DNA of 64,000 nucleotides from Balanoglossus misakiensis (taxonomy: Eukaryota; Animalia; Hemichordata): NCBI GenBank assembly GCA_040954595.2, contig CM082584.2, positions 8,141,919 through 8,205,918 of the forward strand, written 5' to 3'. A program made the translations under genes and the position numbers. The notes beneath the pieces were generated by a model. That model was not told where the DNA came from. It did not search any database and worked only from the letters and a program-made list of their open reading frames with translations. Of the stretch, positions 25,395 through 50,799 are shown one piece after another (position 1 is the stretch's first letter; every line of letters starts with the position of its first letter).

Positions 25395-26077
25395 TCACCA
25401 TCCATCAATCAGTATGTGCTTATAATTCTCTGTAACTATCACGCCTGAAGAAGTAGGTCTCTGCTGACATGTTAGTCTCCTTGCATTGCACTCAGATATT
25501 GACTGATTGTATTTAATCGATACATCGTACATCAGCTTCACAGTAAAGAGTCTTGGTTTAACCCGCATTTTGTAGTTTTTTTCCGCGGTGCTTCTGCGTG
25601 CCCGATAAATGCTAAATTCCATCTTCCAGTTTGGCTACAGTTGGAACATGCGTGTGAGACGAGCCACGCGCTTCAAAGTATAAGGATATAAAATAATATA
25701 GGCCGGGATGATGATGTTCAGTCGGCTGTTATGTTTGCACAGAACTTAAGTACGTACTTCATGTGAAAGTACTGTGTAAATGAAAATTTATAGTTTGCTG
25801 GGCCACTTTGCACAGGTTGTCCGCTGGGCGGCGCTGAAAATATAAATGTCTGTCATCTCAATAAAATGTCATCAGGTTGCCAGTTGAAGATTACGAATAA
25901 TGTCGAGGTAGTTGAAGTAGTGCGATAACTGTGTAAAGAATAAAGACCCTTTTGATCATCTTCTGTCAGCAGTATTATGTGCTGAATGGAAGGTTCAGTT
26001 AATTTTTTGTCCACACAAAATAAATCTGCCATCATTCGGTAGTTGCAAGGTGTCTAGCCCTATCGAAAACCTTTCTT

Positions 26078-26255
26078 ATATAGATATCTATAGAATTCAA
26101 TGGCTGACAGAATTTCTCCTGAATTTTATAGAATTTCTATGAATGTCCATAGGTATCTATGTACCGGTAGTTGTTGATCCTTTTTTGGTTGAAAGTCTAT
26201 GTTAAAATCTATAGAATGTTATTGAAATCTATAGAATTCTATAGAAATCTATAGG
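26078..26255. repeat. Degenerate TCTATAGAA minisatellite / low-complexity tract
   Basis: Repeated palindromic tctataga units. Confidence 0.6.
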
Positions 26256-29200: not shown

Positions 29201-31169
29201 TTCCCAGTGACAAGCCAATCAGAGCCAGCGGTGCAACAGGCGAGCCGTCATCAAAAAGTTTGACACACACAGGGTCTGTTCCCTGGCAACCTCTGGGTGC
29301 GTCCACGGTTACCCGTAACGTTGAACGCTATCGTTCTATCAACTTCCCCACCATGTCAATCGCTGAATGTCAGTATTTGTCAGTTCATGTACATCATACC
29401 ATTTTGCTAACCGTATCAACAGCACCAAAATCTCCATTGCTCTGATTTCTAGGAATATAAAATAGGGCATTTAATTTGTGTGCGTGAGTGAAAAAAGTGA
29501 AGACGGATATTAAATGAAGACAGTTATACTTTATGGCCTCAGATGTCGTGCTTGTCATGCAATATTAGTTCTTACAGCTCCCGTGTGCACAACCAGGAGC
29601 TGATGTTATACGGACGTTTGTCTGTCTGTCGGTCGGTATTTGTGTGATTATAACAGACAAACTGTTGATTTCATTGAAATTTTATGGATTGACAGTTAGT
29701 GTGTCGCTAACGGTGACCCAAGAGATTTCACTCTCGAGCGAAATGATGAAAATTGAAAGAAAGGAACCCAAAATATGCCTCGTGTGAATTTCTTTCTTCC
29801 CTCGACCTGTTTTCCGTCAAACCAATTACTTCCGATGTGTGGGAAGCTGTACAAGTTCTCCTGGCATTATTCTGTGAAAATGAAAAAAAAAATCTGTCAT
29901 CGGGTAAAACACTGATCTTGACTTTAGAGAAGACATATTTTATTCTGTGGTGTAGGAAATCTCTTTTGATGAGAGTGAATCGTTTTTTTTCACGACATAT
30001 GTGTCTCCACTTTCAAGGTCTGATGAGAATGAATTGTCTCGTTTTTGCTCTTTTTGACGTGCGCATCTTCCCTTCCAAGGCTGCGCAAGCCAATTCAGCG
30101 ATAGAGAGAAAGAAAACGGCAGTTAATGGAAGGAACAGGATTTGTGATTTTTCGTTGAAACGACCAGGCATTCGTGCCAGAAATTAGAAACCTCGGTTGT
30201 GTTTGGCGCATTTCGAAAGAATAAAAAAGAAATGTTTTAATTTTTAATCGTGCACACCTGTGGTTGTCGGTGTCTATGTGCAGTGAAGAGAATACAAATG
30301 GAATGGTCGCGTCTCCATCTGATGTTGTTTGTGAAAGGAACGAGGAGTTAATTCTTATAGATCGAGATACAAAACTGAAGCTGTTGAGAGAGAGAAAAAA
30401 AGTTTCTCACAAAAGATTGTAAAAAAAAACGTGAGAGTGGCGCAGGCAATAACGATGAAAGCTGACTCTGTGCTAGATACATATACGCCACCTTGGATAA
30501 TTCATGTGGGTGACCTGTTGCCATGGTTTCTGTGAAAAATAGCTTCGAGCACTGTTGGCATAAGAGAGGTGTATGTTTGTGTGTTGGTTGGTTGGTTGAA
30601 AAATTAATAGTCGACCCCCACTCGCGGAGGCAACAGTTGGTGTGCTGTGTTCAGATCTATTCGTCCGTTCTCGACGGTGGAGTCGAGTCGTGTCTGAAAA
30701 ATGGCAGGCAGGTACAATATGTATTTCGGGTACATCCTTCAGATTGTCATTCTGTCTTGTTCTCTGTATCTTTTCGCCGTTTCATTATGCGTATGTCATG
30801 TTTAGAAAATAAGAGCTCATCCAATTTCATTGCATCTCCGTCTAATTCATATTACTACTTTTTTTTTCACTTTGAGGTGTTTTTTATGTTGATGTGTTAA
30901 GCTAGTGCTATGAAAGATGTGTTTGCTGTTAGTACCTTTAAAAGCTACTGACGTATTCATTCTTACATCATGGCTGCATTTGAAGATGTTTTCGACTTTT
31001 ATGCGCATTGTTTGTTAATGCCGAGCGTTTTTCTCTTATTATTTTTATATCCAGATATCGCCAGCTTAACTCAAGATAGCACAAGTTGTCCGATGAAGCC
31101 TTAAATCCGAAGACTTGATTATTTTGTGCGGTGGTTTTTTTGCATTTAATTTTTTTTCTGGGAGAGAAA

Positions 31170-31269
31170 ATGTTTCGGTCGAGCCAAGGAACAAGGCCAG
31201 CAGCTGCCAGACTGAATTGTTTCCTGTTGTTGGCCTTGGTTACTACAGTACATGGATTATCCCTGCAGG
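31170..31269 (+). CDS. Receptor A exon 1: start codon and signal peptide (MFRSSQGTRPAAARLNCFLLLALVTTVHGLSLQ)
   Basis: ATG at 31170 in aaaATG context, basic n-region, hydrophobic core and VHG-LS cleavage-like site. Ends at a strong G|gtgagt donor in phase 1, matching the Ig exon. Likely acceptor for its UTR part at 31054. Confidence 0.75.
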
Positions 31270-34200
31270 GTGAGTGAAAATTTGATTTCTGCCCGTAGCT
31301 CGCTTTGTGCGCGGAAGTTGGAGATTTCAAGGATGGTGGAGTAGGAAAGGAAATATGTACAACTCACACTGTGTTAAATTAATCCTGTTAATGTTGTATG
31401 TCGACCAGATGCATGCATTGTTCCCTCTCCTTGCCAGCCAGCATCTGAAGTATCTTTTGACGTCATTCGAAGATTTCAGACTTCTCCTTTAAGTATTTTT
31501 TTTCCCACCGTGCGGAGATTATCCTTTTCCCATGGCTGAGTGGAGAACAGTGCTTCCATCGTAAAATTTTCCAAGCCATGAAAAATTGTTTCGCAATTTT
31601 TCTTTCTTAGATAAACCTTTTGCCCAAAACGGAGTGAGTTTACATAAATAGAAATGCAAAGTAACATTGTCGTAACATTCATTTTTCCGGCTATATTTTT
31701 TGCAAACTAGATAAATTTACACAATGTCATGTATGTCTGTTAGTCTACAGAATAGGTGTTCACCAATAGTTGAGAAAGAAGAAAATTTTTGTCTGAGATA
31801 ACTATTATTTGAAATTAGAAATGTTAGCAAATATGAGTAAATTTGATTCTCTCTTGATTTTATCCGGCACTCATTTACTGAACAGGAAATAATGATTCTG
31901 AGTGGCTGTATATTTCAAAGGCACGATCCAACGATGTGAAATTGGACGATCTGGTGTTTGAGTTTGTTTCAGCAAATGAACAACTTTTTGCCAGTAAAAA
32001 AACAGCAAAGGGTTGTCAGGAATAATTTTCTCAAGTGGCACTCATAGCCAAAGGTTTTCGACCTTGAAAATTGATGAATTGGCTATACATGTATGAGCTG
32101 AAAAGATCACTGACAATCACTGGTGTACCTCATCAGTGCATGAAATCATTCGCACTAATGAGCTATATTCAACAGGAGACGAGATCAAGTTTCAGAATTT
32201 TGGGCGAGCAGTCACGGCGCATACTTTTGAAATTAATTCGTGCAGCCATACATTTCGCATGGAATGGTTAATGGGCCCATGAAAAATTATGGGAATTATC
32301 TCCCATGTAAGAGTTTAATAATTTCGGATGGGGTCGGGGCGAGTGTATACACGGATAGAAAATGACTGTACCAGCGTGATATAAATCTGTGTTGCGTGGT
32401 TCATTAGGTCTGTTTATGCAACAACACATTTACCGTGGACAATTATACTGTACTCCCCAATTGAAAGTGTAAGCTTATGATTTCCTGGGGCTTTCCTCAA
32501 TTTTTACTGAAAATGTTCCTTGGTGTTTTTTGATGTTAATATAGCCAAAAAAAATAATGTTTCTTCTGCTATACCTGAATTGACTGACATGAAGACTGAG
32601 GAAGAGATAAAAAGCAAGAATCGCAACCCACGGAAGTTTCCTCTCCTTTATTCAAGATGAAAGTCATATATGTAAGACGTGCGTGTTGTGTAAAGCTGAA
32701 TAGTTCAAATGATTTCATCATCCATAAAGGTTTTGTTTTCGTTAAAACATTGCCCCCGAATCTCAACAGCTGCTCAGAAAACCTCCATTGTGCATAGAAA
32801 TACCAAACATGAAATGTTCTTATTCTTGTGTTGTTTTATCCGCACTTTCTGAATTCTATGGCCACCATTATCAAAGATTGATTTCTTTTCACTCACTTGG
32901 CAATGGCCTCTTTTGATATCACTCTATTGCAGCATGTTGCTTGGGTATCATTATTGATTTCTGATTTCTATGCCCATTGCGCTGAAATCCATTTTTTCGT
33001 GGAAGTTTGAATGAGACTTTTTCAAGTTCTACAGTTCAATCTTATCTTCCTTGAAGTTTTACAAGCCAGAAACTTGATAATGATCGCGCAGGTGCGAGGT
33101 ACATTTTGTATATTGTATTATACAAATAAATTTCAGGTAAATGTATGTGTATAGTTGTATTGTACATTGAAGTCAAAGTCAAAAAAGAAATTGATAAAAA
33201 GAAATAAGTAGAAGTGTTTCCAGGGTGAGACAAGTTTACAAAAACATTTCAGTTAGCACTGCGATGCTATATGTGTCATTTAGCGTTTTGTGGAAAAACT
33301 GGAAATAAAAGTGGACTTTTTGTTCCTTACAGCACCGTCAAGACTGGTTGCGGAAAGTGGCACCAGGGTGACTATACTGTGCGAGATAAAACACAGGGTG
33401 AATGACTCCCTCTCGCCCGAGCACACGGCCAGCGACCTGCTCTGGTATCGCTCTGGCTCTCGGTTGCCACCTGACGTCTACACCGCGGCCAACGACACGA
33501 CGTCGGAACTCTCGCTCGACAGCGCGGACGTCGAAGATAGCGGCAATTACTCCTGCGTGCTGAGGGGCTCGCTGGAGGAGAATGTCGCCGTGGCAACCAC
33601 TGTCCTGCAGGTCGGAAGTAAGTGTTCAGTGAGTCTCTTGTGGGTGAGATATAACAGAAACGCACGATACTTGTATGAGGTCTTAAGGGTATCAGTTGAA
33701 GGTTCACTATCTGACATTTTCGACTATTTTTAAAGTATTTTTCTGTGTATCAACCTAAGTTTCTTGTATGGCTCTGTGGGACAGGGTTATACTGTTAATC
33801 TAGAGTGGAGTCTGCCCACTTGATTTATAGACTGACTGGCCCCTGCACATTTCAAACCCTACAGATTATTTCATCTTGTCAGAAAATGACAAGAATGTCT
33901 ACGACTCACAGACAGGAAATTTGTCTCCTTCGTATACCGGTACTTCTTTGTCTTCATACCGCACCTAATGTTGCAAATACTATTTTATGGATTCACAAAA
34001 CTGAGATGCAAAATGTATCAAGCAAGATGTACTGTACATGTGGTCTTTGAAGCCAGCGTGTATAATCTTCATAGAGGGGGGAGAGGGGGAGGGAGGATGA
34101 GGGAGAGAGAGAGTGTGTGTGTGTGTATGTGTGTGTCATAGTTTCTTGGAATATAGTGAGTTATAATAATTGTTTTAGTGTGCCCATCATTTCTATCTCC

Positions 34201-37200
34201 ACTGAGTGAAAAGAGGAAATGAAAGAAAATTTGTATTAGGAAATATGCTACATACATACGTGTATATGAGCATTGATGAGAAATTCTGGATAAGAGGCAA
34301 GCTAATGAAACTGGAAAAATCAGCAATGTTGGCTCTAAGTGCACGTTAAAGCAAGCATAAGTCACAAAACAGCCTCTAACTAACAGCAGACTTCACTGAC
34401 TTGAATGTGTAATTTTTTCCCTGTTTCAGCAAATCCTGACTTTGCTAACTTCTCCTGTGTCTGTTACAATATGGGAGACATGTGGTGTACGTGGAATCCG
34501 GTCGACAGCTATTTGCCGACGACCTACGAATTCACCTGGAGACTGCAGTAAGTGCTCTGTCAGTTGTCCATCAGGAAATGAGTCTAATTTCCAGTACAAC
34601 TTTCTTGTTGGTAGTGGCGCCTGACTTCTTAGAGTGAGACGAACGTTGCGTGCACGCCAAGCTAATATTGTGCGACTAAGATTTAGTATTAACCTAGGAA
34701 TCATACAATTGACATTATTATTTTTTTACAAAAATTCCCAACAAGCTCAGTGGCTTTACCAAGAAATTAGATGATTTAAAATAACTTCAGGGATGTAGAC
34801 TGTAGAATTAAATTTGCTTCCCGCAAAGAAAAATATTGAAAATTGTGGTCTGTAATATTCCAAATTGTGATCTTTTTAAGCATACCGGTATATTCCTCAC
34901 AACTTGTGCTCAGGGCAGTTTACATTTTTCTGGTAATCCTCATCACTCAACCTCGGTTGATAGAATTCAAGTTCCCCCGAGGGAATAGTCTGATATAACT
35001 TCTGTGGCTCACCTATACATCCATCAGTGAATGAGGGTTAAATATACATGTACATCGTGGCCCATCACTGTAGGGCATCACTAGAGCTAAACACACACAT
35101 CAGCGATCACTGTCATGCCGGGTACCGGCATGCCATTGGAAGACGACGTAGAAACTGGAAAATAACGTGTGTAGCTGACAGTCAGCAGAAACAGCCGAAA
35201 CGTTTCCAAGGCGACGGTATTTCTGAAAATTTGTGTTCAATTAAAAAATTGAACTGAAAGTGAAGGGGTCGTCGCGCCACGTTTGCTTGTTTATAAACAT
35301 TACAGTTCATCCACAAATCACTGAAATCAGATAATTCTTAGAATGAACAAAGCAGCCGACTGTAGTGTCGACTAGGCATGACAGCAACTGAAGATCCTAG
35401 TTGGTCGTGGCGACTGCAGTGGGGGGTTGCGCTGGTATGGGAGGATTATTCTCATCAAGGGGGACACACCCACCTGGCCTTCCCTTTAAAGCCAAATTTC
35501 TTCATTTCTCTCTCTCTCAACAGTTATGACTCACAATGGAGTGCCTGTCCGGACAAGGAGGAGAAAGGCCCCAACTCCTGTTTCTTTGATTTCTACGAAA
35601 ACCTGGGCTCGTTGCACCGGATGAGGGTGGTGGCCACCAACGCCCTGGGACAGAGCCGCCAAGAAATCTGGTTCAATCCGGATACACAAAGTAAGCACTG
35701 GTTGGTTGGCATCTTTCGATCTGTCCTCGGGAAGGTAGATCACAAGGGTCAGGGAGAATAGGCAGAGTAAAATTGTGCCACCCTAGGATTATGGGAATTT
35801 TGGGATGACGGCTCGCTTATTCTGAGCTCTGACTCCCTTTGCTCGACAAATTGGCACCATTAAGTGTCCTAATAGATACTCATGTATCACTTAAGACATG
35901 TTCCTTAAACCCTAAATTGACTTGTAAAGCAGATAACCGTAATCCTTGACGCAAAGGTTTGTAAGACTTGACCGTCTGTTCGAATTTCTCAAAAGTACTC
36001 TTAATGGCCCTTGTGCTTGAGGCACACCAGGGGGCCAGTGTTTTCTCCATCCAGCCATCCATACATGTACATACATTTGCAAACAAGGAATATTTGAATC
36101 AGATCAACTCTACAAACACCATCCACAGTGTTGTTTCTTGCCTGCATGTTGACCATACGTCTGCTTCTTCAATGGGAAGAATCTGAGGAGTTATAGTGCG
36201 CCATGGAGTATAGAAGTGTTATTATTTTAGCATAAAAACCGAACGCTGATGACATCACTGTTTCCAAAGGGACTCATTATCATCAGGAAGCTGTGATGTC
36301 TGGAGTGGCTTCAACAGAAAGCTCAACGAGACATACATGTATGATGCAGGATTCTCTTGAGAGTCACTAACATGCAACCACTGTCCTTGGATGATTGCCA
36401 TAGTTACGTCAGCTAGGCAATCAGTCATGTGTCATTCGTATCATGTGATATACATGCATAAACTGAAATGCCAGATACTAGTACGTATCACACCATTTCA
36501 CCAAGTTTATGCATTTTCCCTCTTCAAGATTTATCTTAATAATTTACTGATTCTGGCTACGTGGGTCTCGCAGAGTTTGGGAAATGGTCTTTTTAGGGTG
36601 TCGATCATTTTTCACTCCATGCACCGGTGATTTTCCATGTTTGGACCAAAATTTCTCCGTGCATCATCGGGCTTAATAAACACCACTGAACGACCACTTG
36701 TGTACTAACAGCTGTGACAGCCATGTCATGTGGGAACAAAATAACATTTTACTTTTTTTTTTAAAATTGCTTACAGGTAAACTGTTAAATCTTCGTGATG
36801 ATACACAGTTTTTTCACCCAATTTTACACCATTCTTTGCCAATTTGTTCGTTTTTGCCAGCAATACCGTATCCGCCAGAAAAAATTCGGGTCAATCCCAA
36901 AAGTGCGTACGCCATCCAAGTGAAATGGGACCCGCCGACCGACTGGTACGCCACCATCTTTTTCCTTCAGTATAAGCTGGAGTACCGCAGCGAGTGGGAG
37001 CCGGGAAAATGGTCCAAGGTACAGATCACGCATTTGCTTTTTCTTTAAATTCACCGTTGTATGTAGTCATGTGTTTTGTGTCGATCCTCTTTTCAGCGGT
37101 ACCCTTTCCGCCCGAAAACGTGACCGTCGCGCCCCTCGGGGCTTACTCCGTCTTGGCGACGTGGCAACCACCCGGCGATTGGTTCTCGTCGTACTTTCGA

Positions 37201-40200
37201 CTTCAGTATAAAATAGAGTATTGTAGTGAATGGGAGTCGGACTGGGTTGAGGTATCTGAGCTTTTTTTCTCGTGTGTGGGTGTGTTAGGCGTTTTTTGAA
37301 TGCACGGTGGAAGTCAGATATGCAGTTTGGGATGTTTTGTTTTAACACCATGGTGAATTAAACTGATATTAGTGAGTGTTTGTGTGAGCTAATTCCAGTT
37401 GCTTGTTGTTGTCATGGCAACAGCACAGTCCTTCGTCATCTCCATGACAGTAGTGGACAAACATTCGGTGATATTTTGGATTTTGTTGCGTTCGAAAACA
37501 CCGGACTGTTAGAATAAAAAAAAACACTCAGTCTGAGAAATTTGTGTAAATACTTGCATAGAGTGAAACATTACCATTACAATGTGAAATGAAATCTGAA
37601 AATGAAAGTTTTCTCTCTCAACATTCAAGAGTCCAATTCACGTTTGACATTCAATGTCATGTGAACTAAATTTGGCGTAGCTGGACACTTAAACATAATC
37701 GCTGTATTTTGAACGTGAACACTTACTAATGTCAGTATCCCGTGTGACCCTAACTAATGACCAGTTTGATAGTTGACTGTCGCTAAAAATTGGCTGTGTT
37801 GCTGCTGCTCACACGTCATACATGTAGTATCTGCATTGTGTAGTTGCTTGATTTTGTAGGGCGTCCGTCGTTACTCACAATTCAAAACTCCTGTTATCCT
37901 ATTAAGTCCAATTTGCATTTGAGCGTAGTGATGTTTTCTCCAGTTCCCTGATGATAATAACAGCTTTTTTTTTTCTTGTTTGTGTGTTGAGGGCCATCGT
38001 CCCTGCATGTTTTTTTCATGACACTGGCACTAATTCCCAGTTGCCAGTGACGTATTCAGAGTGGTCACCATGGTAACCAAAGACTAAGTGTGCGAAAACT
38101 CGAACAATGTCATGAATATTTGACGCCAATGGCATGTGCGACAGAGGAATTGGTTTCTGTGCGTGACGTATGCCGTGTTTGCATGCATTTTATTTTGCAA
38201 AGGAGTTTACGATTATCGTCAGAGTGATGAGACAGGGAAAACGTTTTCATGAAATGCTCAAAATTTTGATAGTTTCGAAAATGTTCTCTGAAATTTATTG
38301 GTTGCAGAAACTGAAATTGAGCTGTATTGAAGGTAAAGTTGTTAATTCCCCACTTTTTTTTTTTTTTTTTTTTTGCTGACGGCACGACAGCTTTGATTTT
38401 GACATTTTTGAGAGTGGAGGTTACCCACGCTCACTGCCCCCGCGGGTGACTCTACACAACTGTCTAATCTGCGGCCATGAACTCTGGATAGTCCAACATA
38501 TGTCCTAGTTCATCAGAAATGCATTTGTATTTCTGGTGTTGGTGATTCCATCCTTGATATTTAAGTTGGAGACATTGCTGTCCAAGTCTGAATCTGATTC
38601 CGCTCACTGCTGCTGAATCAGAAAATTACATTGTGTAATCTGTACCATGTTTTGTGAAAATGTGTAATCCTAATTTCATAAATCCAGGAAACATTTCTGG
38701 GTCACCCCTTGATCATTTACTTTTGCTGTGGAAAGATATGACAGTTATTACCATAATTCAATGCTCCAAAAAATAATTAGATATAATCTCAAAATCAGTT
38801 GATAATGTGAATGTCGCATCAAACGATGCATTATCCTCTGGCACGTTTCTGTTTTCTCACTAATCACATTTTTTTACCCCATGTACCGGTACACTCCTCC
38901 CAATTAAACCTTAGTTTAGTTTATTTGCCCGGCTGCATGTTGTTTTTGTGGTGTGTGTTAATTTTATAAACTACAATTGTGTACTCCCAATTCTCACTAC
39001 CTTAAATAGGTTTTTACTACTTAGGTGAGTGATGAAAATCTCGTATGGTTGACACAATATCAAGATGGCAAATTTTTGCAATTCTGAAGCTTTGCAGCTG
39101 AAAAAATTATATAACCAAATTGAATGAGTTCCATATTCTAACTACAAAGAGAAATTAGTGACCAAAGGAATTCAGTTAACATATCATTTCTTCGAAATCT
39201 TACTTCAGTGAGTTGTCAACCTTTTTACCCACAATGCAATGTGATCTGACCCCCTAAGTAAAAACCTCTCTATGGTAACAGGAATTGATTTCACTTCTGC
39301 ATGTATTTGTTATTTTCATAGACATTTTGTGACAAAATATTTATCTTAAGCATGTGTGTGCCCCATTGTTTATTTTTTTTACAAACCTGACTCCTTTGCC
39401 TCTGTCTCATTCTCTAATTGCTTTTTCATTCTGCATTTTGCTTCTTCCATGCTCTCAGATACATACATATGACTTTCATAATTTTGCCATTTTGAAACAA
39501 TGCTGTTATGCTGAGGTTTTTGCTTTACTTTGCATAGTTACCCTCTGTGTCAGCTGTATTGTCTCTATGTTTTTGAATCAGGATCATCTGAAATGTCCTT
39601 GTTATTTAAGTTGGGCCATCTTCTATGTGGAGAATGAAAATGGGTGATAAAAATCTATAATGTCCTCTGACCTCTTGGGGTCGTTCATGCTGTCTGGTGC
39701 TATGTTTGTCATTGTTTTCATGTCCACAATATTTTGCCTTAGTTGTTTTGCCTGTAGGAACATGTCTCGCTGCTTCTTTATCATGTTTAGTTTCTGTTTG
39801 TACCGGGTAATGTGTACAGTCATGTACCTTTAGGAAGACACACGATCATGTCATTGGTCTTTCTGGTTTGCCGATACATACAAATGGGAAACGTTTGATT
39901 GTCATTCATCTTCTGTATATCTTTTCTTGAATTTTAATGGCCGAACCCGGTTCATTTTACCTCTCAATACTAGCATTATCTCCACACAATTTACCCCTGT
40001 TCATACTGAAGTGGCTATCTGTGGATAGCAGGCAAAGTTGGCTATTTGAAAATCAACACTTCCCAATTTCAAAGCCAGATGCTTATACATGAAAATCGCT
40101 CTAGTCTCACACTTTCTTCACCACTTTTTTCTTCTCTCCATTGTCCCCCCTCTTCCTCCTCTGACACTCGCTATCTGCTGCTGGGCTCGCAGGAAATCGC

Positions 40201-43200
40201 CAACATCAAAAAACAGACGTCCTACACCATCAGCGGGTTGCACCCGTTCACTCGCTACACTGTGCGCATCGCTGCTATGCCGGCTGCTAGCCACGGAGAC
40301 TATTGGAGCGTCTGGGCTGCAGCCAGCGGACACACCCTGGAGTCAGGTACAGAAATGCCATATACGCTCATATATCCCACCGGCCCCTTAAAAAAACGTT
40401 TCCATTTTTTTTTCTTTCTTTTATTTCATTTCTGCATGATGTTCAGCTTCGTATTGATAAACAGCAACATTATCGTGTAATCGGACTCGAACCGTACACC
40501 GTGTACTTTGTCCGGGTGTCTTGTAAACCCACCGGCACGGACGGCTACTGGAGTGATTGGTCAGATGTCGTTTCGGGGAGAACTAAAGCCAAAGGTATCT
40601 GGGGATGAAAAAGTGTGATGTTTTGCGCACAGGTTTTTTTTTAGAAATTCTCTCTCTGTCTCCCTCTGGTACCAACGGGGAGAATGACTAACCCCACACT
40701 GGATATAGTAGTCGTTCTCTCAATTTAGTGTGTTAGGACAGTGAATTGAGTCGAATGACAAATTTCAGTTGTTCAGCTTATATCACTGTCTACGATTGCT
40801 TGACTGTAGACTAGACAAGCACAGTTGTGTGATTTCAGTGAGATGCTTGTTTGAAAAACTGGGATGGGTAGGTCTTGGATGGTCAAATTGTAGGCATCCA
40901 AATATTCATTTAAGGCAGTGAGTGAGTGATTTCATTGTGTTATCAATTGGTCCAGGGGCATCATACGGTTTACATCAAACTCTGTAGACCTCAGAGGATT
41001 TCGTTTGGTTGTAGCTCGACTCAGTCATAAAACGCAACATTTTACAGTTTTAATATCACATTTATGGATATTTTTTTTCACTCTAGCTCCTGATGAAGGT
41101 GTACGGCTGTTTATCAGTGGAGAGATCATGAAACTACCATCAAGGGATGTGACAATATCATGGATGGTAGGTTGTTAGAATGGCTCACTGTGTTTGTGTG
41201 TGCCTGTATGTGTGTGTGCACACGTGTATTTGTGTGAATTTCTCTACATGCAACAGAAATAAATATTTCACTGTTTTGAAGAATACAGTGCATGAAAATG
41301 TAATTTTCGAAAAAAAACTCATGGATATTAATGTGTGTAATGTACGGTATAATTCTGTCCATATTTCAGCTACCAGAGAGGAGGCAAAGGAATGGAATTA
41401 TCCAAGGTTTCAATATTTCGTGGATCGAAGAAGGAAATCCTACAAATATTCAATCTATCAATATCCCAGACGGAAATCAATCGTTGTTCACAATGAAAGG
41501 TAATACCAATTGCTAGTTATTAATTGCGAGCATTGAAAGACAAGCTGAATGTAATTAAACAACTTGCATTTGTTTAATTCTCTCATTGCAAATGTTCCAT
41601 CAGTTTGATTTTCATAATGTTGTAAAAAGCCACCACCATTTTGGACGTGTGGTCCTCTTGCCATCGTACATGTACGTGAATGTGGTTCAAAGTTTCTTTC
41701 GCAAGGAATTGTGATATCATTTGACATTATTAATAATATACTGATAATTAAATATCTGATCACCTGCAGATCTGGATCTGTTCAGATCCTACCATGTCAC
41801 CGTGACTGCATATAACAGCGTTGGATCATCGCCAGTGTCTGTGATTCGTATTGTGGATAAGACCACAGGTGAGTTTGATCGTCGGAGAAAACTATCGTAT
41901 CACCCATCCAAAACCACGACTCCTTACTCCTTTTTTTTATCCGGTGTCTATCATTCTGTCACTGTCTCTCATGTCCTCTTTCCTGTATTGTCGCAGCACC
42001 CGGAGAACCACGGATCACGGAAGTGAAAGCCATCTCCAACAGCAGCATCGCGGTCACCTGGGAGGCACCTCAGAATCCCAACGGTGTCATCATGAACTAC
42101 GTGCTGGCGTACGTTGACAGTGATGGCAGCAGCAGCAGAAGCGGCAGACAGTGGTAGGTCACATTACAGTTGTGTCTCTCAGATTTTGTTGGCCGGCTGT
42201 GAACTTGTCTTGTGCGTGAAACCATGAACGCCATTTCACAAACTCTCTCTCTTAAATGGACGACAAAGTCCTTAACTTTTGACATTATTTTGGTTTAATA
42301 TTACATGTCTTTTGGTGGGCTGTTTAATATGCAGTGAGCATCTGTTAAAAACTCAACTCACACTCTGTACTGTACTGTACATGAGTGTTGACCAAAAATT
42401 GAATGTTGGAAGTATTTACGTGTCAGTGGGTCATTTTGCCTGCTTTAGTGAGTATATGACAACATAAGGTAAAACCAGATTGCAGATTGTGTCTTTCAAT
42501 ACATACTGTAACTTGAGATGACAGGTGTTTTTTATATAATACTCAAATACATACCATACTTTTGAATTTGAAAATCTTTTCTTTGTTTTGACGTCTGTTA
42601 ACATTTCTGATTGGTGCTCGTTCTGTGTTCCGCAGGAAGAGAGTTGAGTTTGACAACACAGTCAATCGCTATGTCGCCAAGGATCTACACGAGTATGTCC
42701 AGTACGAGTTCCGCATTCAAGCAAAGAATATTGTAGGATACGGTGGCTTCTCCAAAACGGTCACCGAATATACCATGGAAGGAGGTGATTATAATTATTG
42801 GGCTCAGTTTGAATTCAGTTGTATTTATAAGAGGTTTCTCTATGTTATTAGCCTTAAAAGGTTCTGGAATTTGAAACCAGCTCTATAGGGGAAAAAATTG
42901 AATTTCCTTCTAGAGTGTCCTGCAAATTTTACTGAATTTCTAGTACGTTATGAAATGTTCATTACCTGTGCAGTAATCATAAAATCTTGATTCTTGTGAA
43001 GAATTTTGACAAAGAGTTTCACCGTATAACTTTGGAAAAATCACTGAAAAATTGGCATCGTGGAATTGTGAATTATTTCATGCAAATGAACCCTAAAATA
43101 AGGCAGCTGGCCCCTCTGTTGTTGTGATTGGTTCATTATAGAAGGAGATAAAAGCTTCTTTGTATGTCGTTCTTCCAACAGTTCCCAGCAGTGCGCCCGT

Positions 43201-46200
43201 CAACCTCACACTGCAGACTCTTCCCAACGCTCCCTCCAGCCTGCTGGCCAGTTGGAAAGCTCCGTGCCTGGAAGACAGGAACGGCATCATCCGGCAATAC
43301 AACTTGGCCTTTTGTACCTACCATCCCAACGTGAATGGAGACAGCGGCAATAAGCGGATAGGTTGCCAAGGTAACGTGACGGAATGAGTCGGGCGTTATA
43401 CGTGCTAATTGACGTATTTTGGCGACGTTGACAGTTTTCAAGCTTTCTCCTATAGTCATGACAGCATTCAATTTTAGCTGCTGGATTTGACATCATGTAT
43501 TATTAAGATCGGTGGCCTATTGTATGTGTGTGGGCAATTTACGTCACGCACATGTATATATTATAGTTCAATTTGTTCAATATTCTGTAGTGAATATAAA
43601 AACAGAGTAAGTAGTGAGTGGTTGCTTGCAACTGCCAGGCCCCTTATGAATGATGCAAATTTGTATTTGTATACATTGACAATGTGTTTAACTCAGAATT
43701 GGTAAGCTAATCTTTTCCTGCAAAGACAGGGAGACATCTTTGTTCTCTGTTTCATATACCGGTACCGTATATATATATACCCGTATACAGGCCAAATGTA
43801 TTAACTCATCCTGGACTTTTTGTGAAAGTTTATGAGCACATGTCAACTGCAGGCTGCTCTCTCTCTCTCTCTCTGTGTACTTAGGTGTCTATCGGTACCA
43901 AACACATAACTGGGTGATGCGTCATTCTAAACATTAATAGATGTCCTCCCCTAAATACCGCCCTCTCTTGTTCCGTCTTCCACAGCAAAAGACGTAACCA
44001 AGGCGACGTACACGGTCCCCGATCCACAGACTCTGAAATCGAGCCGGGAACTGCTGCATTACGAAATCACCGGTCTGAAAGCCAACACAGGTTATGCGGT
44101 GTCGGTGTCAGCGCTGACCACGGCAGGGGAAGGACCGGCCACTGAGTTCGTTCTGCAGAAAACAAGTATCGGAGGTCAGTGGAATGTAACTCTTACCCAA
44201 TTTGTTTTTCTATGTATTTATTTGTTCATCTTACTTGTAAAGAACTTGTAAATTTGTCAATTCTGATGTAATCTTGTACACTCCTTTGAAATTGTATATG
44301 CCAGGATTGTATTGTATTGTATTATATTGTATTGTATTGTATTGTGTTGTGTTGTGTTGTGTTGTGTTGTGTTGTGTTGTGTTGTGTTGTGTTGTATTGT
44401 ATTGTATTGTATTGTATTGTGTTATGTTGTGTTGTATTGTATTGTATTGTAAATGTGTATTGTATTGCATTGTTGTATTGTGTTGGTGCATTGTGTTGTT
44501 GTGGTAAATTGTATTAAATATGACCACCACTACCGTATAATGATTGCTCCAAGAAGCCTCCAGAAGACTATAAAGCAAAGAAATTTTACTGGAAGCTCTC
44601 ACTTTCTCTTTTTCTTGCCATCCAGCTCCGACAGGACGCCCTCTCTCCATCAGAGTGCCGAAGATACAACCGTCCACGCTGACTTTGACGTGGGCCATGG
44701 ACAATGAGTCGGACGTCCTGATCAGCCACTACATGGTGGGCGCGAGGCCGCTCAACCACACCGACTGCGGCATGAAGTTCATGAACGTGACTGAAACCGC
44801 GGTCACCATCCCGAACCTGTGCGGTTACGAGACCTACGAGCTCACCATCAAGGCCTGCAGTAATGCGGTCATAGACGACCCTTGTGGCAAAGATTCCGCG
44901 CCTGTGTACAGCACCACTGAGGCAGGAGGTGAGTTCTACCAATTTCAAAGATTTTTTTTTTCTTCAATCGGACCGATTTTGAGAATTGTAGATGGCAAGT
45001 GGCCATTTAAAAAAAAAAATGTGCAAAAGCAAGTCAATACTTGAATTATCTCTAAAATCCGTACTACATTTACACGGAAGTATGGCCCAGGTGATTTGTC
45101 CATTATTTTTTTCTTTTCCAAAACATGTTTGTGTGGCCTTGGGATTCAGGAATCAATTAGTCTCTTTGTGTGCATTGATTTCCCATGTGATAAACCTGGT
45201 TTCTTGTAAATTCCCAAAACATCATTCATCCTTCTCAGAATATTGCATCACCGCTCCCCTTGTTTGTGAAAGTCATAGAGGTCACAGTGACCCTGAGGCT
45301 AAATTTAACGTACGTGGCATATGGTGTAGAACATGTGACATTATGTATGTGTTGTTGTTGCGTAAGGCCATACAATGAGACTCTGTGTTTTTGCATCCGT
45401 CCAACTTGAACATGTAGGTGGAGATAAGCAGTTGAAAAGTAGTCGTAAAACTGGTACTCCACCACATAATGTATTTGATTGACACTTTTCATATGGTTTT
45501 TAAATTGATGTAGAAATATTATCATTTTGACTGTGTAATAAATAATACATGTATAAGGTGTGTCGAGTATTCTTGATGTACAGATGAAGCAAATTTTCTC
45601 TCAACTGTCATGAACTGTGGCTATAGAATTCCATAGAATCTCTTCATAAGGTTTGTCTTGTCCATAGAAAATGTTCCTGAGAGCCCTGGTGTTTTAAATG
45701 ATGAAAAAAGCATCTAGACCCTGTCTAACACAATGTTTGTGTGTTGTTGTTTTTCCCTCGTTTGATTCTAGTTCCCAGTCAACCAATGGCTGTAAAGGCA
45801 GCTCAGGTCACTGATTCGACCATTGAAGTTGTGTGGGAACCCCCAGAAAGGTACGTGAAAACCAGAAACAGCTATCAGAATCAATATCCAAACACCGCTT
45901 GAAAGACTATGATGATATTTAAAAACAGAAAAAATGGAAATTTGCATTTTATTCCGAATGCTTGACAGGTGAGAGTGCTTCTAATATGCTAATGCAGTCC
46001 ACCATCTGTCACGTTTTCAGGCTGAACAGCCCGGAGGATGGCATGACGTACTCCGTCGAGTGCCTGACGGAGCGCAACAAGTCCATGAGCGAAGTCGCGG
46101 TGGTCAGGTCGACGGAGGCCATCGTCCGCATGCTCTGTGACAAGAGTATTGACAGCGAAGCGGTGCAGGTCAGGTGCCAAGTGCGGGCCATCAGCGCCAG

Positions 46201-49200
46201 GCAAGAGAAGAGCCTGGCCACCTCCACCAATTACGTTCTGATTTGCTACGACGAACCAGGTGATTATCTTTACTAAAGAAAAAAAAAACCCTGATATGTT
46301 CCCCCCGTCTGGAGAGTTGGAATCGTCCGCTGCAGGTTCGCTGCGGGTGATTCCATTCAGGGATGGGGAGGGATGATTTGTCACTCATGATGGACTCTGT
46401 GTGTGGTAGAAAGGACAGAAAGTGTTCATGTTCATAAACACTTTGAATATGCCAATGCGGTCAGCAGACATCTGTCCTATTTCATATTTTTCATAGAGTC
46501 GAAACCTTCCCTAAACAAAGGCTTGTGAGGGTATTCTTACTAGTTACACTTTCAAAACTGAAAAAACAAGTCTTGCTGAAACTGCTCACATTTCACGCCT
46601 CTTTGCACTGTACTCACACACTCATTCACAGCCACAACCCGCCACTTTTTGCCGATCGAACCATGACCACCGCCATACCACACCTACGACTGTATAATTA
46701 TACAAATCTGGAACTACACACACTCCCACACACACACACAGTCACAAACAGCCATGAACTGAGACCAGTGGCATACTTACAGCTGAGAGAGTCTCTACAA
46801 CTAAAAACATGGTGCTCAAAGCAAAAACTGCCACAATGTGATACGTTTAATTCCTTCACCACAAGACTATGATGTACTACACTTCTTAACACTTTTTTCC
46901 CTCAGTCGATTCTTTCTAATGCGGTCTCTGATTTCGCCGAAATTCATCCTTCCTTGCCAATAATCTTCAGATCAGGTATCAGAACGATAATCTGGTCACC
47001 TTGTTCATGTGTTGGGTGAAGGACGAAACATTTATTCATGTGACCTTTTTTTTACAAAATAGAACTTTCAATGATATAATGTGACTGTATATTTGATGTC
47101 ACGAATTTTGGGATTTTTGTTCTCTATGTTGAAGCTCTTGGCATTTTGGTTAAAAAAGTTTATATAGTTAAGCTGGAAAAATAGATGTTTGATAAGCTTT
47201 GTATTCTATTAGTTGTTGTAGTGAGTTGTTTTTTATGTGAAAAATAGTATGGAATACGTTTCAGTGAATGTACGGTACATTGTATGTGCTCCACCATTAG
47301 TCATACTCAAGTCACCATAGCCATATTTTTTGCTTTTGATATATTTTTATGATGGTTTCAGCAATAAAGACAACATTTAATTGGCCCTTTCTCAGCAAAG
47401 CATCAGAGTTTGTGGAAATGTGGATACGGATGGGTTTGCATAATAAGAAAGAAACAATTACATGCTTTGCACCAATTTTTCATCCGTTTGCTCATGCCAA
47501 TTTCTGTCTGTCTGTCTTTTGGTCTGTACATGTATGTCCATAGTATCTCTCTGTTTGGGTGGTGCATCTCAAAAACAACTAAACAGATTAAAGTCGAATT
47601 TGATATCTGATACTGCACCGAATCTCACGACATTTGCAAATTTTTCAATCTTTAATATTAAACCCATGTGAGCGTATTCATTTCATGTCTAGTTTATTCA
47701 TGTTTCAGTGCTAGCTAGGAAGAGGGGTTCGACAGCTTCCTTGGGATTTCACGGTTCATGCGTTACTAAGTGCTTGCAGAAACGATTAGCGCTTTTTTTT
47801 TCTGTCAAGTTATATTGTGTGAGAGAGACAGTCCTGCCTTGGGGAGAGATTTTCCAGACAGAAGAGAAAGTTCTGGCGTGCGTGCGTGCACTGCAGTTTA
47901 ACTTGTCAAGGTCGCAACTGTATCTTGGTTGTCTGGAACGAGTGGGCTGCAGTAGTAACTGATTAAGAATTCAGTGCGCCGGGATCACTTTCACAGGCGA
48001 AACCCAAACCCATCTGGTTTTCTGCTCACGGGAAATTTCAGTAGCTACCTGTGGGAGTTATACAGCCTTGCTTTGGCTGATCTGGGCGTCATATCTCCTG
48101 TTATCCTCGCTGAAGTGATTTTAGCGTCTGGTGTAGTCTTGAGTTTCAGACAAGAGAATAACAGAACTAGGTCAGTTTTTTTTTTAGAGAGAATTGGCGG
48201 TGACTATATACCAGTAATACCTGCTTGTTTGTTTCTCTGTGCTTCGCCATTTTGTTGGAACATGTAATTTTGCTGTTCAAGGAAAACCCATCATGACAGG
48301 ATAGTGACTCTGCTTTTAATTGGTTGTCCGGGGAACAAACGAAGCTCTCTCTATGCAATTATGGAATTTTGACGCAATTGAAAATAAGAGAAAGCAACGC
48401 CAGGTCTGGCATACCTCTGGCTCAGTCACATATTACGACATGGCCCAAATATTCCAGCACGCACACTGACGGGATTGGCTCCATAAATTACATTCCACTC
48501 ATGACCCCTGATCCCTGCCACTTCCCGTTGTAACCGAGCAGGCAGGATATGGGTCACGTCAAATTTTCTTTTTGATTTCCCACAATCCTTTGTGTTTTGT
48601 TTATTTTACAAGAAGTGGGCTGGTTCCGTTCCCTCAGGGTCTACAGAGGTTACAGGTCACGGAAGGAATGGGGATAGGATGCTGGGATATGAGTAGCTAG
48701 CCTCTCATGAACATCTAGTGTAATTGTGTTGTAATTGTCTTTCAATTAGAATACTTCACGTGTGTGTCTCGATCTCTGTTCTGATAGATCTGACTTACAG
48801 ATAAAACATTTCTTATTTTCCGACTTTTGCAGTGTGGCCATACGTGGTGATTGTCTTAACTGTCATGGTTGCCATAGCAATCCTTGCATTCGTCTCCTAC
48901 AAGTGCTACATGTGCCTCAAGAGAAGTGGTGCTTTCGACAAAGTCAGCTACATCCAGCCCATCTGGGAAGTGAAGGTAAACATCTGTTTTTTCTTTTAAG
49001 CATGTTACGCAGAACGTAAACGGGAAAACTTCACGCACTCGTTTTTTTCCCCATAGGATTACATTGATATTTGCTAGAAAACAAACTTATACTGTTGTCC
49101 TTTTCATGGAATTTTACACATAGCTTAGTGCAGTAAATATATTTTCATTTGTCAAATAAAATCGTGTGGTCACCACACTCTATTTTTAGATAAATTTCAT

Positions 49201-50799
49201 TAAGATATATTTGCCTATAGCCAAACCATACCATTGGTGAAAAATGCTGAGTCAGCAGTTTTCTTCTTTTACCGACTAAATTCATCAAGATAGGCATCAT
49301 ATAATTCAGCAGGGTACTATAATAATGGAATCAATTTTGTATAAATTTCAGTTCTTGACAAGTCAAGTATTAGCTTGTTTCCTTCTGAAAATTAAAGGAA
49401 ATAGGCAGCATCTGGATATTCTGGAAGTGAAATTTTTGGGGGTTTGAAAGATTCTGGGGGGAGATAGTAGGGAAAAAGGCCATGAAAAACTCCTCGATGT
49501 ACGGTATATGCAGATGGATGTGTCACTTTTGTGTGTGTTTGTCGATAGGTTCCAATGCAGGTCAATGTGTACTTGGGGGAGAAGGAAGAGTATGATGAGA
49601 TGTGGCACCAGAGGTTTGAAGAGAAACAAGAGAAGACGACCGTGGACAGTGCGAGCGTGCATTCCACCGACCCGGGCGTGGTGGTTGACAGCGCCCGGCC
49701 CCTGCTGACGCTCGCCGGCCAGAGCTTCAGCATGTCCGAGCCGGGCGGGGAGGGCGTCGGCGGCGGCGGGGAGAGGAAAGGCGCCAGGCGGCCCAAGAGC
49801 GAGGGGGACGAACCCTCGGAGACGACCCCCGTGCTGAGGGGCGGCGGCGCGCCCAGCCAGGACGGGAGCCGGAACAGGCTGAGCTCGGCCGACGAATACC
49901 AGCTGATGGCCGAAGTCGACGGCCGCAGGGTGCTGGGCCCGCCGGGGTCGCTGTCCTCCCAGACGTCGGGGGACAGGGCGGAGTACTCGGAGCTGTCGGA
50001 CGCCGACGGGCTGGTGGGGTTCAAGGCCAAGGACGACGGGGGAAAGACTGCCAAGGGGGTGCAGGAGAAGAGAGCCCTGAAGCTGAACTTGTTGGTGCCC
50101 CTGCAGGAGGGGGTCACCTTCCACCCGGACGCGGACGTCACCAGCATCAGTGTGTTTCACGCCGACGTCGATACCGGACGCCCGGACCTGGCTGCCGACT
50201 GCGCCCACGGCAGCATGGTGGGAGAGAACTCAGATAAGCGGGGAGGCGAACCCGGTGCCGACAGTATTCGCCCGTGCCAGTCGGCCGGTGATGATGCCAG
50301 CACGCGCAGAGAGAGCGCGGCGACGAAGAATGACAGCGCAAACCAAACACAAGAATATCAACCGGTTGGCACTTTCGAGCCAGGCGGGAATTACAGCTTG
50401 GACCACGACGAAGGGGTCTGCACGAGCGGACACTCGGAAGAATCGGGGATTATATTCGACATGAGTGACTCGGAAGATCTGGAGAATACGATCCCCTTGC
50501 TCAACGGCATCCCCCGGCCAATGTCGCCGTCACTGGGCCTCTTTGATCAGACGGCGGGATCATCCCCACCAAAAGACGCTAGTGTCTCCCACGAAGGACT
50601 ACAAAAATTCCCCCTGGAGGCGAACGGCAGTTTCTTTCTCCTGCAGGACAGCGACGTGGAGCAGGACGAGGCGGACCTTTCCACAGAAATTGACTGTATG
50701 GTTCTGTCCGCACAGCCGGTCCCGGACGACAAATATGTGTCGAACAGTCAGGACGCTTACAAGAGCCTCAACTCTGATCTGAGACAGACTACGGTCTGA
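31170..50799 (+). CDS. Receptor A: gp130/LIFR/Domeless-like class I cytokine receptor, whole multi-exon gene model (18 coding exons per isoform, about 1326-1329 aa)
   Basis: Exons listed separately join in frame at GT-AG junctions with consistent phases. The product has a signal peptide, Ig domain, CHR with C-x9/10-CxW and four Cys, WSDWS motif, five FN3 domains, one TM helix and a Tyr-motif-rich tail. Confidence 0.9.
33333..33617 (+). CDS. Receptor A exon 2: Ig-like domain D1
   Basis: ttacag| acceptor and |gtaagt donor, phase 1-1. Contains VTILC, LLWYR and LSLDSADVEDSGNYSC Ig signatures. Confidence 0.9.
34430..34547 (+). CDS. Receptor A exon 3: CHR D2, N-half (NPDFANFSCVCYNMGDMWCTWNPVDSYLPTTYEFTWRL)
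   Basis: tttcag| and |gtaagt, phase 1-2. The NFSC...CTW pattern is typical of gp130-family D2. Confidence 0.9.
35524..35690 (+). CDS. Receptor A exon 4: CHR D2, C-half (WSACPD...NSCFF...RVVATNALG)
   Basis: Acceptor after a pyrimidine tract, |gtaagc donor, phase 2-1. Has the second Cys pair and VxAxNALG motif. Confidence 0.9.
36861..37018 (+). CDS. Receptor A exon 5a: CHR D3 N-half, variant a (IPYPPEKIRV...WDPPTDW...LQYKLEYRSEWEPGKWSK)
   Basis: gccag| and |gtacag, 158 nt, phase 1-0, FN3 first half. Confidence 0.85.
37097..37251 (+). CDS. Receptor A exon 5b: CHR D3 N-half, variant b (VPFPPENVTV...WQPPGDW...LQYKIEYCSEWESDWVE)
   Basis: tttcag| and |gtatct, 155 nt, phase 1-0. Clear duplicate of exon 5a, 78 nt downstream. 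Confidence 0.85.
40193..40346 (+). CDS. Receptor A exon 6a: CHR D3 C-half, variant a (YTISGLHPFTRYTVRIAAMP...DYWSVWA)
   Basis: cgcag| and |gtacag, 154 nt, phase 0-1, degenerate WSxWS (WSVWA). Confidence 0.8.
40447..40594 (+). CDS. Receptor A exon 6b: CHR D3 C-half, variant b (YRVIGLEPYTVYFVRVSCKP...GYWSDWS)
   Basis: ttcag| and |gtatct, 148 nt, phase 0-1, canonical GYWSDWS. Confidence 0.9.
41087..41166 (+). CDS. Receptor A exon 7: FN3 D4, part 1
   Basis: ctctag| and |gtaggt, phase 1-0, APDEGVRLF...RDVTISWM. Confidence 0.8.
41370..41499 (+). CDS. Receptor A exon 8: FN3 D4, part 2
   Basis: tttcag| and |gtaata, phase 0-1, LPERRQRNGIIQGFNISW. Confidence 0.85.
41770..41868 (+). CDS. Receptor A exon 9: FN3 D4, part 3
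   Basis: ctgcag| and |gtgagt, phase 1-1, YHVTVTAYNSVGSSP. Confidence 0.85.
41997..42153 (+). CDS. Receptor A exon 10: FN3 D5, N-half
   Basis: tcgcag| and |gtaggt, phase 1-2, APGEPRI...VTWEAPQNPNGVIMNYVL. Confidence 0.85.
42636..42784 (+). CDS. Receptor A exon 11: FN3 D5, C-half
   Basis: ccgcag| and |gtgatt, phase 2-1, DLHEYVQYEFRIQAKNIVGYGGFS. Confidence 0.85.
43182..43370 (+). CDS. Receptor A exon 12: FN3 D6, N-half
   Basis: caacag| and |gtaacg, phase 1-1, VPSSAPVNL...SWKAPCLEDRNGIIRQY. Homologous to receptor B exon 63732-63914. Confidence 0.9.
43986..44174 (+). CDS. Receptor A exon 13: FN3 D6, C-half
   Basis: ccacag| and |gtcagt, 189 nt, YEITGLKANTGYAVSVSALTTAGEGP. Same length as the receptor B counterpart. 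Confidence 0.9.
44306..44502. repeat. (TTGTA/TTGTG)n pentanucleotide microsatellite in receptor A intron 13
   Basis: Direct tandem repeats visible in the sequence. Confidence 0.95.
44626..44928 (+). CDS. Receptor A exon 14: FN3 D7
   Basis: atccag| and |gtgagt, phase 1-1, NLCGYETYELTIKAC...DPCG. Confidence 0.9.
45772..45850 (+). CDS. Receptor A exon 15: FN3 D8, N-part
   Basis: ttctag| and |gtacgt, 79 nt, phase 1-2, VPSQP...IEVVWEPPE. The paralog exon is also 79 nt. Confidence 0.85.
46021..46259 (+). CDS. Receptor A exon 16: FN3 D8, C-part
   Basis: tttcag| and |gtgatt, 239 nt, phase 2-1. The paralog exon is also 239 nt with the same four Cys. Confidence 0.85.
48833..48975 (+). CDS. Receptor A exon 17: transmembrane and juxtamembrane (VWPYVVIVLTVMVAIAILAFVSYKCYMCLKRSGAFDKVSYIQPIWEVK)
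   Basis: ttgcag| and |gtaaac, 143 nt, phase 1-0. About 22 hydrophobic residues followed by basic residues. Confidence 0.9.
49549..50799 (+). CDS. Receptor A exon 18: cytoplasmic tail to stop
   Basis: gatag| acceptor (an in-frame alternative lies at 49560), in frame with the 414-aa ORF. Disordered acidic/Ser-rich sequence with YDEM, YQLM, YSEL, YQPV, YSLD, YVSN and YKSL. Confidence 0.85.
   Translation, partial: VPMQVNVYLGEKEEYDEMWHQRFEEKQEKTTVDSASVHSTDPGVVVDSARPLLTLAGQSFSMSEPGGEGVGGGGERKGARRPKSEGDEPSETTPVLRGGGAPSQDGSRNRLSSADEYQLMAEVDGRRVLGPPGSLSSQTSGDRAEYSELSDADGLVGFKAKDDGGKTAKGVQEKRALKLNLLVPLQEGVTFHPDADVTSISVFHADVDTGRPDLAADCAHGSMVGENSDKRGGEPGADSIRPCQSAGDDASTRRESAATKNDSANQTQEYQPVGTFEPGGNYSLDHDEGVCTSGHSEESGIIFDMSDSEDLENTIPLLNGIPRPMSPSLGLFDQTAGSSPPKDASVSHEGLQKFPLEANGSFFLLQDSDVEQDEADLSTEIDCMVLSAQPVPDDKYVSNSQDAYKSLNSDLRQTTV

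Follow-up and report, generated by a model that had tools for sequence, protein, structure and literature searches.

In FGFR1-3 (IIIb/IIIc) and in egl-15 of C. elegans (5A/5B), one half of the third extracellular domain is encoded by tandem-duplicated, mutually exclusive exons. FGFR is a kinase receptor in which one exon pair swaps the C-terminal half of an immunoglobulin (Ig) domain. In FGFR2, according to passages of PMC2880598, exon choice alters ligand binding and is regulated through UGCAUG. The Drosophila Dscam1 gene carries four clusters of 12, 48, 33 and 2 exons (passages of PMC4165533), and a V-ATPase subunit gene has two exon clusters under tissue-specific control (abstract of PMC3585155). 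Here we describe a gene for a gp130-like receptor in a 64,000-nucleotide stretch of the genome of the acorn worm Balanoglossus misakiensis (contig CM082584.2; hereafter the window). Its third ectodomain module (D3), a fibronectin type III (FN3) domain, is encoded by two adjacent pairs of duplicated exons, 5a and 5b for the N-terminal half and 6a and 6b for the C-terminal half. We consider it probable that splicing yields up to four versions of this domain, which are predicted to differ on the surfaces facing a partner chain and, less so, on those facing a ligand.

The coordinates, lengths, spacers, AG/GT ends and phases of the four exons were all as described in an earlier, sequence-only reading of the window (Table 1); the splice sites are intact and all four exons are open. 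Within each pair the exons are adjacent and homologous, have the same phase and similar lengths and encode the same structural region, the features by which passages of PMC5740500 define clusters of mutually exclusive exons. Frames were followed from exon 2 to exon 18 of an 18-exon gene model, and the four joins that take one exon of each pair (5a or 5b with 6a or 6b) were open to the terminal stop, with 1,293-1,296 codons. An early stop was found in nine of ten other joins tried, including 5a+5b, 6a+6b and all four single-exon joins, and the stops claimed after ...RYPFRPKT for 5a+5b and after ...ASY for 6a+6b were reproduced. The remaining join, overlooked in the sequence-only reading, skips all four exons (35690>41087) and stays in frame over 1,192 codons with D3 deleted; no D3-less form is found among the isoforms listed for relatives. 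Sibling exons are identical at 25 of 51 (5a/5b) and 20 of 48 (6a/6b) residues and at 96 of 155 and 80 of 143 aligned bases, respectively, far under the level of haplotype duplicates. Pfam fn3 was detected on all four alternative exons and on five downstream exons. A six-frame scan with hidden Markov models (HMMs) returned exactly two strong copies of each D3 half in the window (E 6e-27 to 3e-23) and no third copy of either, the next best match (5e-5) being other FN3 exons. The four WSxWS domains announced earlier need correcting in one half: the canonical motif is present solely in 6b, and 6a has WSxWA, as do the 6a exons of the Ptychodera and Glandiceps orthologues.

Exon use in relatives was taken from 16 protein clusters, whose isoforms are RefSeq XP_ predicted models and not reads. 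RefSeq XP_ splice variants normally rest on transcript alignments. The three cluster members of the Ptychodera orthologue (gene 1) are X1 with 5a+6a, X2 with 5a+6b and X3 with 5b+6b, and the five members of a Ptychodera paralogue (gene 2, XP_070571800-4) comprise 5a+6b, 5b+6b, 5a+6a and 5b+6a together with an N-truncated 5b+6b form. For Glandiceps LOC144436643, all three members are relevant (5a+6a, 5a+6b, and 5a+6b shortened by 8 residues). The Saccoglossus cluster has two relevant members out of four, one model with the first exon 6 and another with both exon-6 copies, the other two being unrelated short peptides. The two mutually exclusive pairs that were proposed to build one D3 of a gp130-like receptor are thus conserved in relatives and listed there as isoforms. 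As for the proposed four full-length receptors, the four open frames and the presence of all combinations in the Ptychodera paralogue speak for them, but 5b+6a is missing from the list of the orthologue. Matching donors suggested a strict coupling of a with a and b with b, but three genes list 5a+6b, and such coupling was rejected as a general rule.

Some of the models show further variation outside this choice. Isoform X5 of Ptychodera gene 2 (P0019) starts just before 5b and has no signal peptide, D1 or D2. P0022, encoded on another Ptychodera contig, is a 367-residue partial near-copy of gene 1 (329 of 353 residues identical) in the form 5a+6b; it ends after D4 without a membrane segment and may be a soluble form or a fragment. 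From one Glandiceps paralogue come three isoforms (P0014, P0016 and P0017) whose alternative tails are short, at 31-62 residues.

The identity of the gene is supported by its ectodomain and by its relatives. The intracellular exon matched one protein only, from Ptychodera flava (E 7e-37), and the D2-D3 region of Ptychodera used as query retrieved six clusters, all from Ptychodera, Saccoglossus or Glandiceps; exon 5a alone gave no match in a word-based protein search. Whole-protein phylogeny was done by a quick tree search on the constitutive parts (25 rows), which placed the window gene as sister to Ptychodera gene 1 with a Shimodaira-Hasegawa-like approximate likelihood ratio test (SH-aLRT) value of 100 and within an 11-row acorn-worm clade (support 98). 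The top PDB sequence match of the Ptychodera orthologue was gp130, over D1-D5/6 (E 2e-31), and Foldseek listed gp130-family complexes at ranks 2-6, behind a titin-filament chain. Exons 6a and 6b each match gp130 D3 best; the idea that 6a resembles an alpha-type chain (such as CNTFR or EBI3) and 6b a signalling chain was therefore unsupported. In an alignment of 34 proteins C125, C135, W137 and C174 are invariant and C163 is nearly so, and the same residues are present in exons 3-4 of the window. The receptor thus has the two-FN3 cytokine-binding module, as defined in passages of PMC7378365, with the D2 cysteines, C-x-W and, in 6b, WSxWS. It also has an Ig-type D1, further FN3 domains, a single membrane pass and gp130 as best match, as expected of a class I cytokine receptor.

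The alternative exons are 63-65% identical to those of Ptychodera gene 1, and 14 constitutive exons 47-82% (median 62.5%). Being as conserved as constitutive exons, the alternative ones are neither decayed duplicates nor an artefact of assembly, and a conservation check proposed with the sequence-only reading came out in its favour, all four being kept in Ptychodera at this level. In exon trees the 6b copies from three families group together as a clade (support 96/96), as do the 6a exons of four genes (80/94). Approximately unbiased (AU) tests rejected within-species clades for 6a+6b of the window (p-AU 1e-5), 5a+5b of the window (0.021) and the first and second exon 6 of Saccoglossus (0.048), and did not reject them for 5a+5b of Ptychodera gene 1 (0.063) or for 5a+5b (0.28) and 6a+6b (0.053) of Ptychodera gene 2. 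The 6b clade and the AU tests indicate that the exon-6 duplication predates the split of the three families, and clade support and AU tests place the exon-5 duplication at least before the split between the window gene and Ptychodera.

AlphaFold2 models of the Ptychodera orthologue, a structural check also proposed earlier, predicted that D3 is an intact FN3 domain in both pure forms, with a predicted local distance difference test score (pLDDT) of 82-96 for a+a and 87-96 for b+b. In these models exon 5 provides strands A, B and C with the B-C loop, and exon 6 provides strands C'-G with the F-G loop and the WSxWS motif. Passages of bioRxiv 10.1101/2022.06.30.496838 place the ligand site of gp130 mainly in D2, with V252 coming from D3, and assign one of ten shared ligand contacts to D3. 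They also describe a larger stem-stem contact of D3 with the partner chain via E235, L236, I239, D276, R281 and T285, and attribute 64% of the ligand interface of IL-6R-alpha to D3. With a mouse-human numbering offset of +2, inferred from six matching letters, the gp130 site-2b residues E235, L236 and I239 from these passages align into exon 5 and D276, R281 and T285 into exon 6, and V252 (site 2a) aligns into the exon-5 B-C loop. At the position equivalent to V252, 5a has I and 5b has Y in both the window gene and Ptychodera gene 1, to within plus or minus 2 residues in a gapped alignment. Two residues past it, at the end of the B-C loop, an F/R swap is fixed in all genes compared. Since D3, judged by the alignment to gp130, contributes mostly to the stem surface, a switch of partner is no less likely than a switch of ligand. 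The two switches may jointly rebuild one composite stem surface, and its division over exons 5 and 6 would explain why both halves vary. Of the ligand or co-receptor specificity claimed earlier, the co-receptor part is favoured by the stem residues in both exons, and the ligand part is weakened by the small D3 share of the shared gp130 contacts described in those passages.

The introns of 78 and 100 nucleotides within the two pairs are the shortest of 18 gaps examined, the next being 128 nucleotides. A motif scan placed candidate branch points of the 5a-5b intron at -28 to -50, which is 29-51 nucleotides from the 5a donor. In the 6a-6b intron it placed a candidate distant branch point 44-45 nucleotides from the 6a donor, before a long pyrimidine tract, with weaker candidates at -19 and -24; 94 nucleotides ahead of the acceptor are free of AG. 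Passages of PMC5740500 and PMC7969005 give a steric limit of about 50 nucleotides between a branch point and the upstream donor. In a pattern noticed after looking, +4A or +5G is present in none of the four alternative donors and in all 14 constitutive donors (Fisher p 3e-4). The first seven intron bases are identical in the 5a and 6a donors (37019-37025 and 40347-40353) and, likewise, in the 5b and 6b donors (37252-37258 and 40595-40601). ACTAAY, one of five motifs tested, is about ten-fold enriched around the clusters (7 in 4.8 kb versus 6 in 46 kb, p 6e-5; 5 of 1000 shuffles), and the 2,941-nucleotide inter-cluster intron contains four ACTAAY and four TGCATG. We take ACTAAY to be a STAR/Quaking site. 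The STAR protein ASD-2 switches let-2 exons (passages of PMC4165533). A TGCATG is found at 40433, 14 nucleotides upstream of the 6b acceptor, and the enrichment of this motif is marginal (6 versus 1 in constitutive introns, p 0.011; p 0.06 versus upstream DNA; 89 of 1000 shuffles for the long intron). TGGTG and GTGTG were not enriched around the clusters.

Long-range RNA pairing was also considered; splicing of the Dscam type would call for a single conserved docking element that pairs with a selector at every variant exon. Weak candidate elements lie in the inter-cluster intron at 37272-37297 and 38863-38891. Four of 24 probe-intron tests stood at 0/40 in a first scan and two of 30 at 0/100 under a stricter model. 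These two duplexes scored 21 and 4 of 1000 with 1000 shuffles and 0/27 with real tiles, and they have different partners for the 6a and 6b donors. Since two of 33 control splice sites reach similar duplex scores (k<=1 of 60), such pairing is a lead at most. A bistable RNA switch via 37348-37377 (-14 to -18 kcal/mol) was dropped.

We propose that splicing would pick one exon of each pair, giving up to four D3 versions, and that exclusivity would be enforced by branch points lying within about 50 nucleotides of the upstream donor. Including both exons of a pair, or an exon from just one pair, shifts the frame and would expose the transcript to nonsense-mediated decay, which may remove it. Tissue-regulated choice is likely because all four alternative donors are weak and ACTAAY is enriched nearby. 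Exon choice would change the receptor chain, among the expanded acorn-worm paralogues, with which the protein pairs, and a secondary effect on ligand affinity could arise via the B-C and F-G loops.

A Box1 proline motif and STAT3-type YxxQ docking sites mark JAK/STAT signalling chains. YxxQ is absent from the tail of the window receptor and from the long tails of the relatives examined, and no PxP/PxxP (Box1-like) was found in exon 17 or in the first 60 residues of exon 18, PxP being present in some relatives. After the membrane segment there is a W-x(3-4)-P stretch, and the tail has eight tyrosines, with Y-D-x-x and terminal Y-V/F/I-x-x motifs that recur in relatives. Lacking YxxQ and a near-membrane PxP, the receptor is classed as gp130-like and not as a JAK/STAT signalling chain, and the coupling to JAK/STAT named in the sequence-only reading is putative.

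We hold mutually exclusive splicing at this locus to be very likely real and the production of at least three forms from the window gene to be likely, and we lean towards binding partners that differ between the forms. Several observations weigh against this interpretation. The support for splicing, though good, is indirect, the isoforms being RefSeq XP_ predictions from relatives. Saccoglossus XP_077868244 joins 6a and 6b in frame via a 7-residue linker, a double inclusion that is probably a model error; it is the one protein with hidden tandem D3 half-domains among 54 of cytokine-receptor type. The form 5b+6a is absent from the three isoforms of the Ptychodera orthologue, and 5b from the three of Glandiceps LOC144436643. 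A single D3 is listed in eight other enteropneust clusters (P0006, P0007, P0022-P0025, P0030 and P0092) and in four echinoderm clusters (five proteins), where two Antedon forms differ only N-terminally. The 5b clade of four genes is weak (61/87), and so is the case for dating the exon-5 duplication any further back than the split between the window gene and Ptychodera. Fixed differences between a and b amount to one exon-5 and one exon-6 position across all four genes (six and six among closer orthologues), and a shared a/b specificity is thus thinly supported. It is highly improbable that the second copies are dead or arose as artefacts of the assembly, since all four exons are open with intact splice sites, each is closer to its orthologue in another species than to its own neighbour, and the models of relatives use both copies.

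Splicing may also be real with the partners remaining the same, the versions then differing in folding, surface delivery or signal strength (WSxWA versus WSxWS) or being tissue-tuned equivalents. The scarcity of fixed a/b differences across paralogues, the recurrence of WSxWA in 6a of the three orthologues, the mostly D2-borne ligand contact described in the gp130 passages and the statement in passages of PMC5740500 that mutually exclusive exons modulate rather than greatly alter function all fit this explanation. We nevertheless find it unlikely, given that the two versions are just 42-49% identical, each retaining about 65% identity between species, and given the conserved F/R swap that ends the B-C loop. 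A coupled or lopsided choice between the clusters, giving two or three forms with 5b+6a rare and no free two-by-two combination, would be compatible with forms that differ in partner. The gap at 5b+6a in the Ptychodera orthologue, the donor bases shared by 5a with 6a and by 5b with 6b, and the weak duplex between the regions after the 5b and 6a donors (21 of 1000 shuffles) point to it. The listing of 5a+6b in Ptychodera and Glandiceps, all four forms in the Ptychodera paralogue and the similar duplex scores at control splice sites point away from it, and we treat it as a minority possibility. We give little weight to a receptor that is gp130-like outside but a co-receptor, decoy or adaptor-coupled receptor in function, with the D3 swap tuning that role: the motifs missing from its tail and from the long tails of relatives suit it, but the eight tyrosines, the recurrent Y-D-x-x and terminal Y-V/F/I-x-x motifs, W-x(3-4)-P and the PxP of some relatives do not. 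More tentative than a partner-changing D3 is an extension of it, a combinatorial repertoire of cytokine receptors in acorn worms. An ancient two-by-two switch would rebuild the D3 stem surface, each form meeting a different ligand or a different chain of the expanded receptor family, and each gene copy that arose later would have retained a single form. The kept forms may be 5b+6b in one Saccoglossus paralogue, 5a+6a in three of Glandiceps and 5a+6b in one of Ptychodera. Single-form paralogues group variously with the a or the b copies: b+b for Saccoglossus gene 2, a+b for Ptychodera gene 3 and a+a for Glandiceps genes 2-4. This hints at a partition among duplicates, though unannotated copies are possible.

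Table 1 Features of the receptor locus and its neighbours in the window
Feature	Position	Strand	Length and phase	Content
Probable exon 1	31170..31269	+	phase 1 donor	signal peptide; sole ATG..GT candidate with hydrophobic core in 15000-33300
Exon 2	33333..33617	+		Ig-like D1; Pfam ig E 9.5e-8, Lep_receptor_Ig E 4e-5
Exon 3	34430..34547	+		D2 N-half, C..C-x-W of cytokine-binding module; weak LIFR_D4/TSLPR_D1 matches
Exon 4	35524..35690	+	phase 1 donor to 5a or 5b	D2 C-half
Exon 5a	36861..37018	+	158 nt, phase 1-0	D3 strands A-B-C, version a; 65% Ptychodera 5a, 73% Glandiceps
Intron 5a-5b	37019..37096	+	78 nt	
Exon 5b	37097..37251	+	155 nt, phase 1-0	D3 strands A-B-C, version b; 65% Ptychodera 5b
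Inter-cluster intron	37252..40192	+	2,941 nt	
Exon 6a	40193..40346	+	154 nt, phase 0-1	D3 strands C'-E-F-G, WSxWA; 65% Ptychodera, 73% Glandiceps
Intron 6a-6b	40347..40446	+	100 nt	
Exon 6b	40447..40594	+	148 nt, phase 0-1	D3 strands C'-E-F-G, WSxWS; 66% Ptychodera, 67% Glandiceps
Exons 7-16	41087..46259	+		further FN3 domains; exon 7 41087-41166, exon 16 46021-46259
Exon 17	48833..48975	+		transmembrane segment; helix at equivalent place in orthologue model
Exon 18	49549..50799	+	416 residues	intracellular tail; predicted disordered in orthologue; no YxxQ
TRIM-type gene	55421-57667	+	single exon	RING, B-box, filamin, NHL
Second receptor, 3' part	59814-63915	-		FN3 exons

The second receptor belongs to the same family and lies tail-to-tail with the first, the TRIM-type gene being placed between them; its tail exon encodes 566 residues with 14 tyrosines and one YxxQ, and its D3 exons lie past the window end. 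Tandem expansion of gp130-like receptors is seen elsewhere in acorn worms: in Glandiceps a single 28.8-Mb contig carries at least six paralogues (P0005, P0006, P0007, P0024, P0030 and P0092), and in Ptychodera one contig has two paralogues with consecutive accessions. Automatic names (sidekick homolog, PTPRF-like, uncharacterized) mask these acorn-worm receptor genes.

Among Creative Commons-licensed papers in PubMed Central and bioRxiv, with subscription papers outside this scope, no report of a cytokine receptor with mutually exclusive D3 exons was found, and no duplicated D3 exons were reported for gp130 or Domeless in the literature searched. The word 'cytokine' is absent from the main text of PMC5740500, whose supplements could list a cytokine receptor. 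The passages covered of PMC13203501 treat Saccoglossus IL6R-like proteins phylogenetically and do not include such splicing. With four defined ectodomains to compare, the gene would give direct access to the ligands of invertebrate gp130-like receptors and to the rules by which these receptors pair; it would also, if the partition among later gene duplicates is true, be a test case of splice forms turning into genes.

The receptor resembles gp130 (IL6ST) and Drosophila Domeless in its Ig-type D1, its D2-D3 with WSxWS, its further FN3 domains and its one membrane pass, and differs from them in having more membrane-proximal FN3 domains, no YxxQ and no clear Box1. The 6a-6b intron resembles those of OGDH 4a/4b and similar short-intron mutually exclusive pairs, where a branch point less than about 50 nucleotides from the upstream donor, a long pyrimidine tract and an AG-free zone are described (passages of PMC7969005); these were mapped experimentally in OGDH, whereas the acorn-worm branch points are predicted from motifs. 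Unlike the clusters of the V-ATPase subunit gene, which are the non-adjacent exons 4 and 7, the acorn-worm clusters are adjacent. The Dscam-style splicing of the sequence-only reading survives in that, as in Dscam1, several clusters combine to diversify an ectodomain, but here there are at most four forms, both clusters lie in one domain, docking-selector pairing is not significant and FGFR IIIb/IIIc is the closer model. Unlike FGFR, the acorn-worm receptor swaps both halves of an FN3 domain via two adjacent pairs, and the change in binding is here only predicted. The mechanism class is known from FGFR IIIb/IIIc, and a cytokine-binding domain divided between two adjacent exon pairs appears to be undescribed. 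Vertebrates diversify class I cytokine signalling mainly via gene duplication and shared chains. Our results suggest that, in a sister lineage of the chordates, splicing adds to this by varying the binding domain itself, in the manner of FGFR but with two adjacent switches in one domain.

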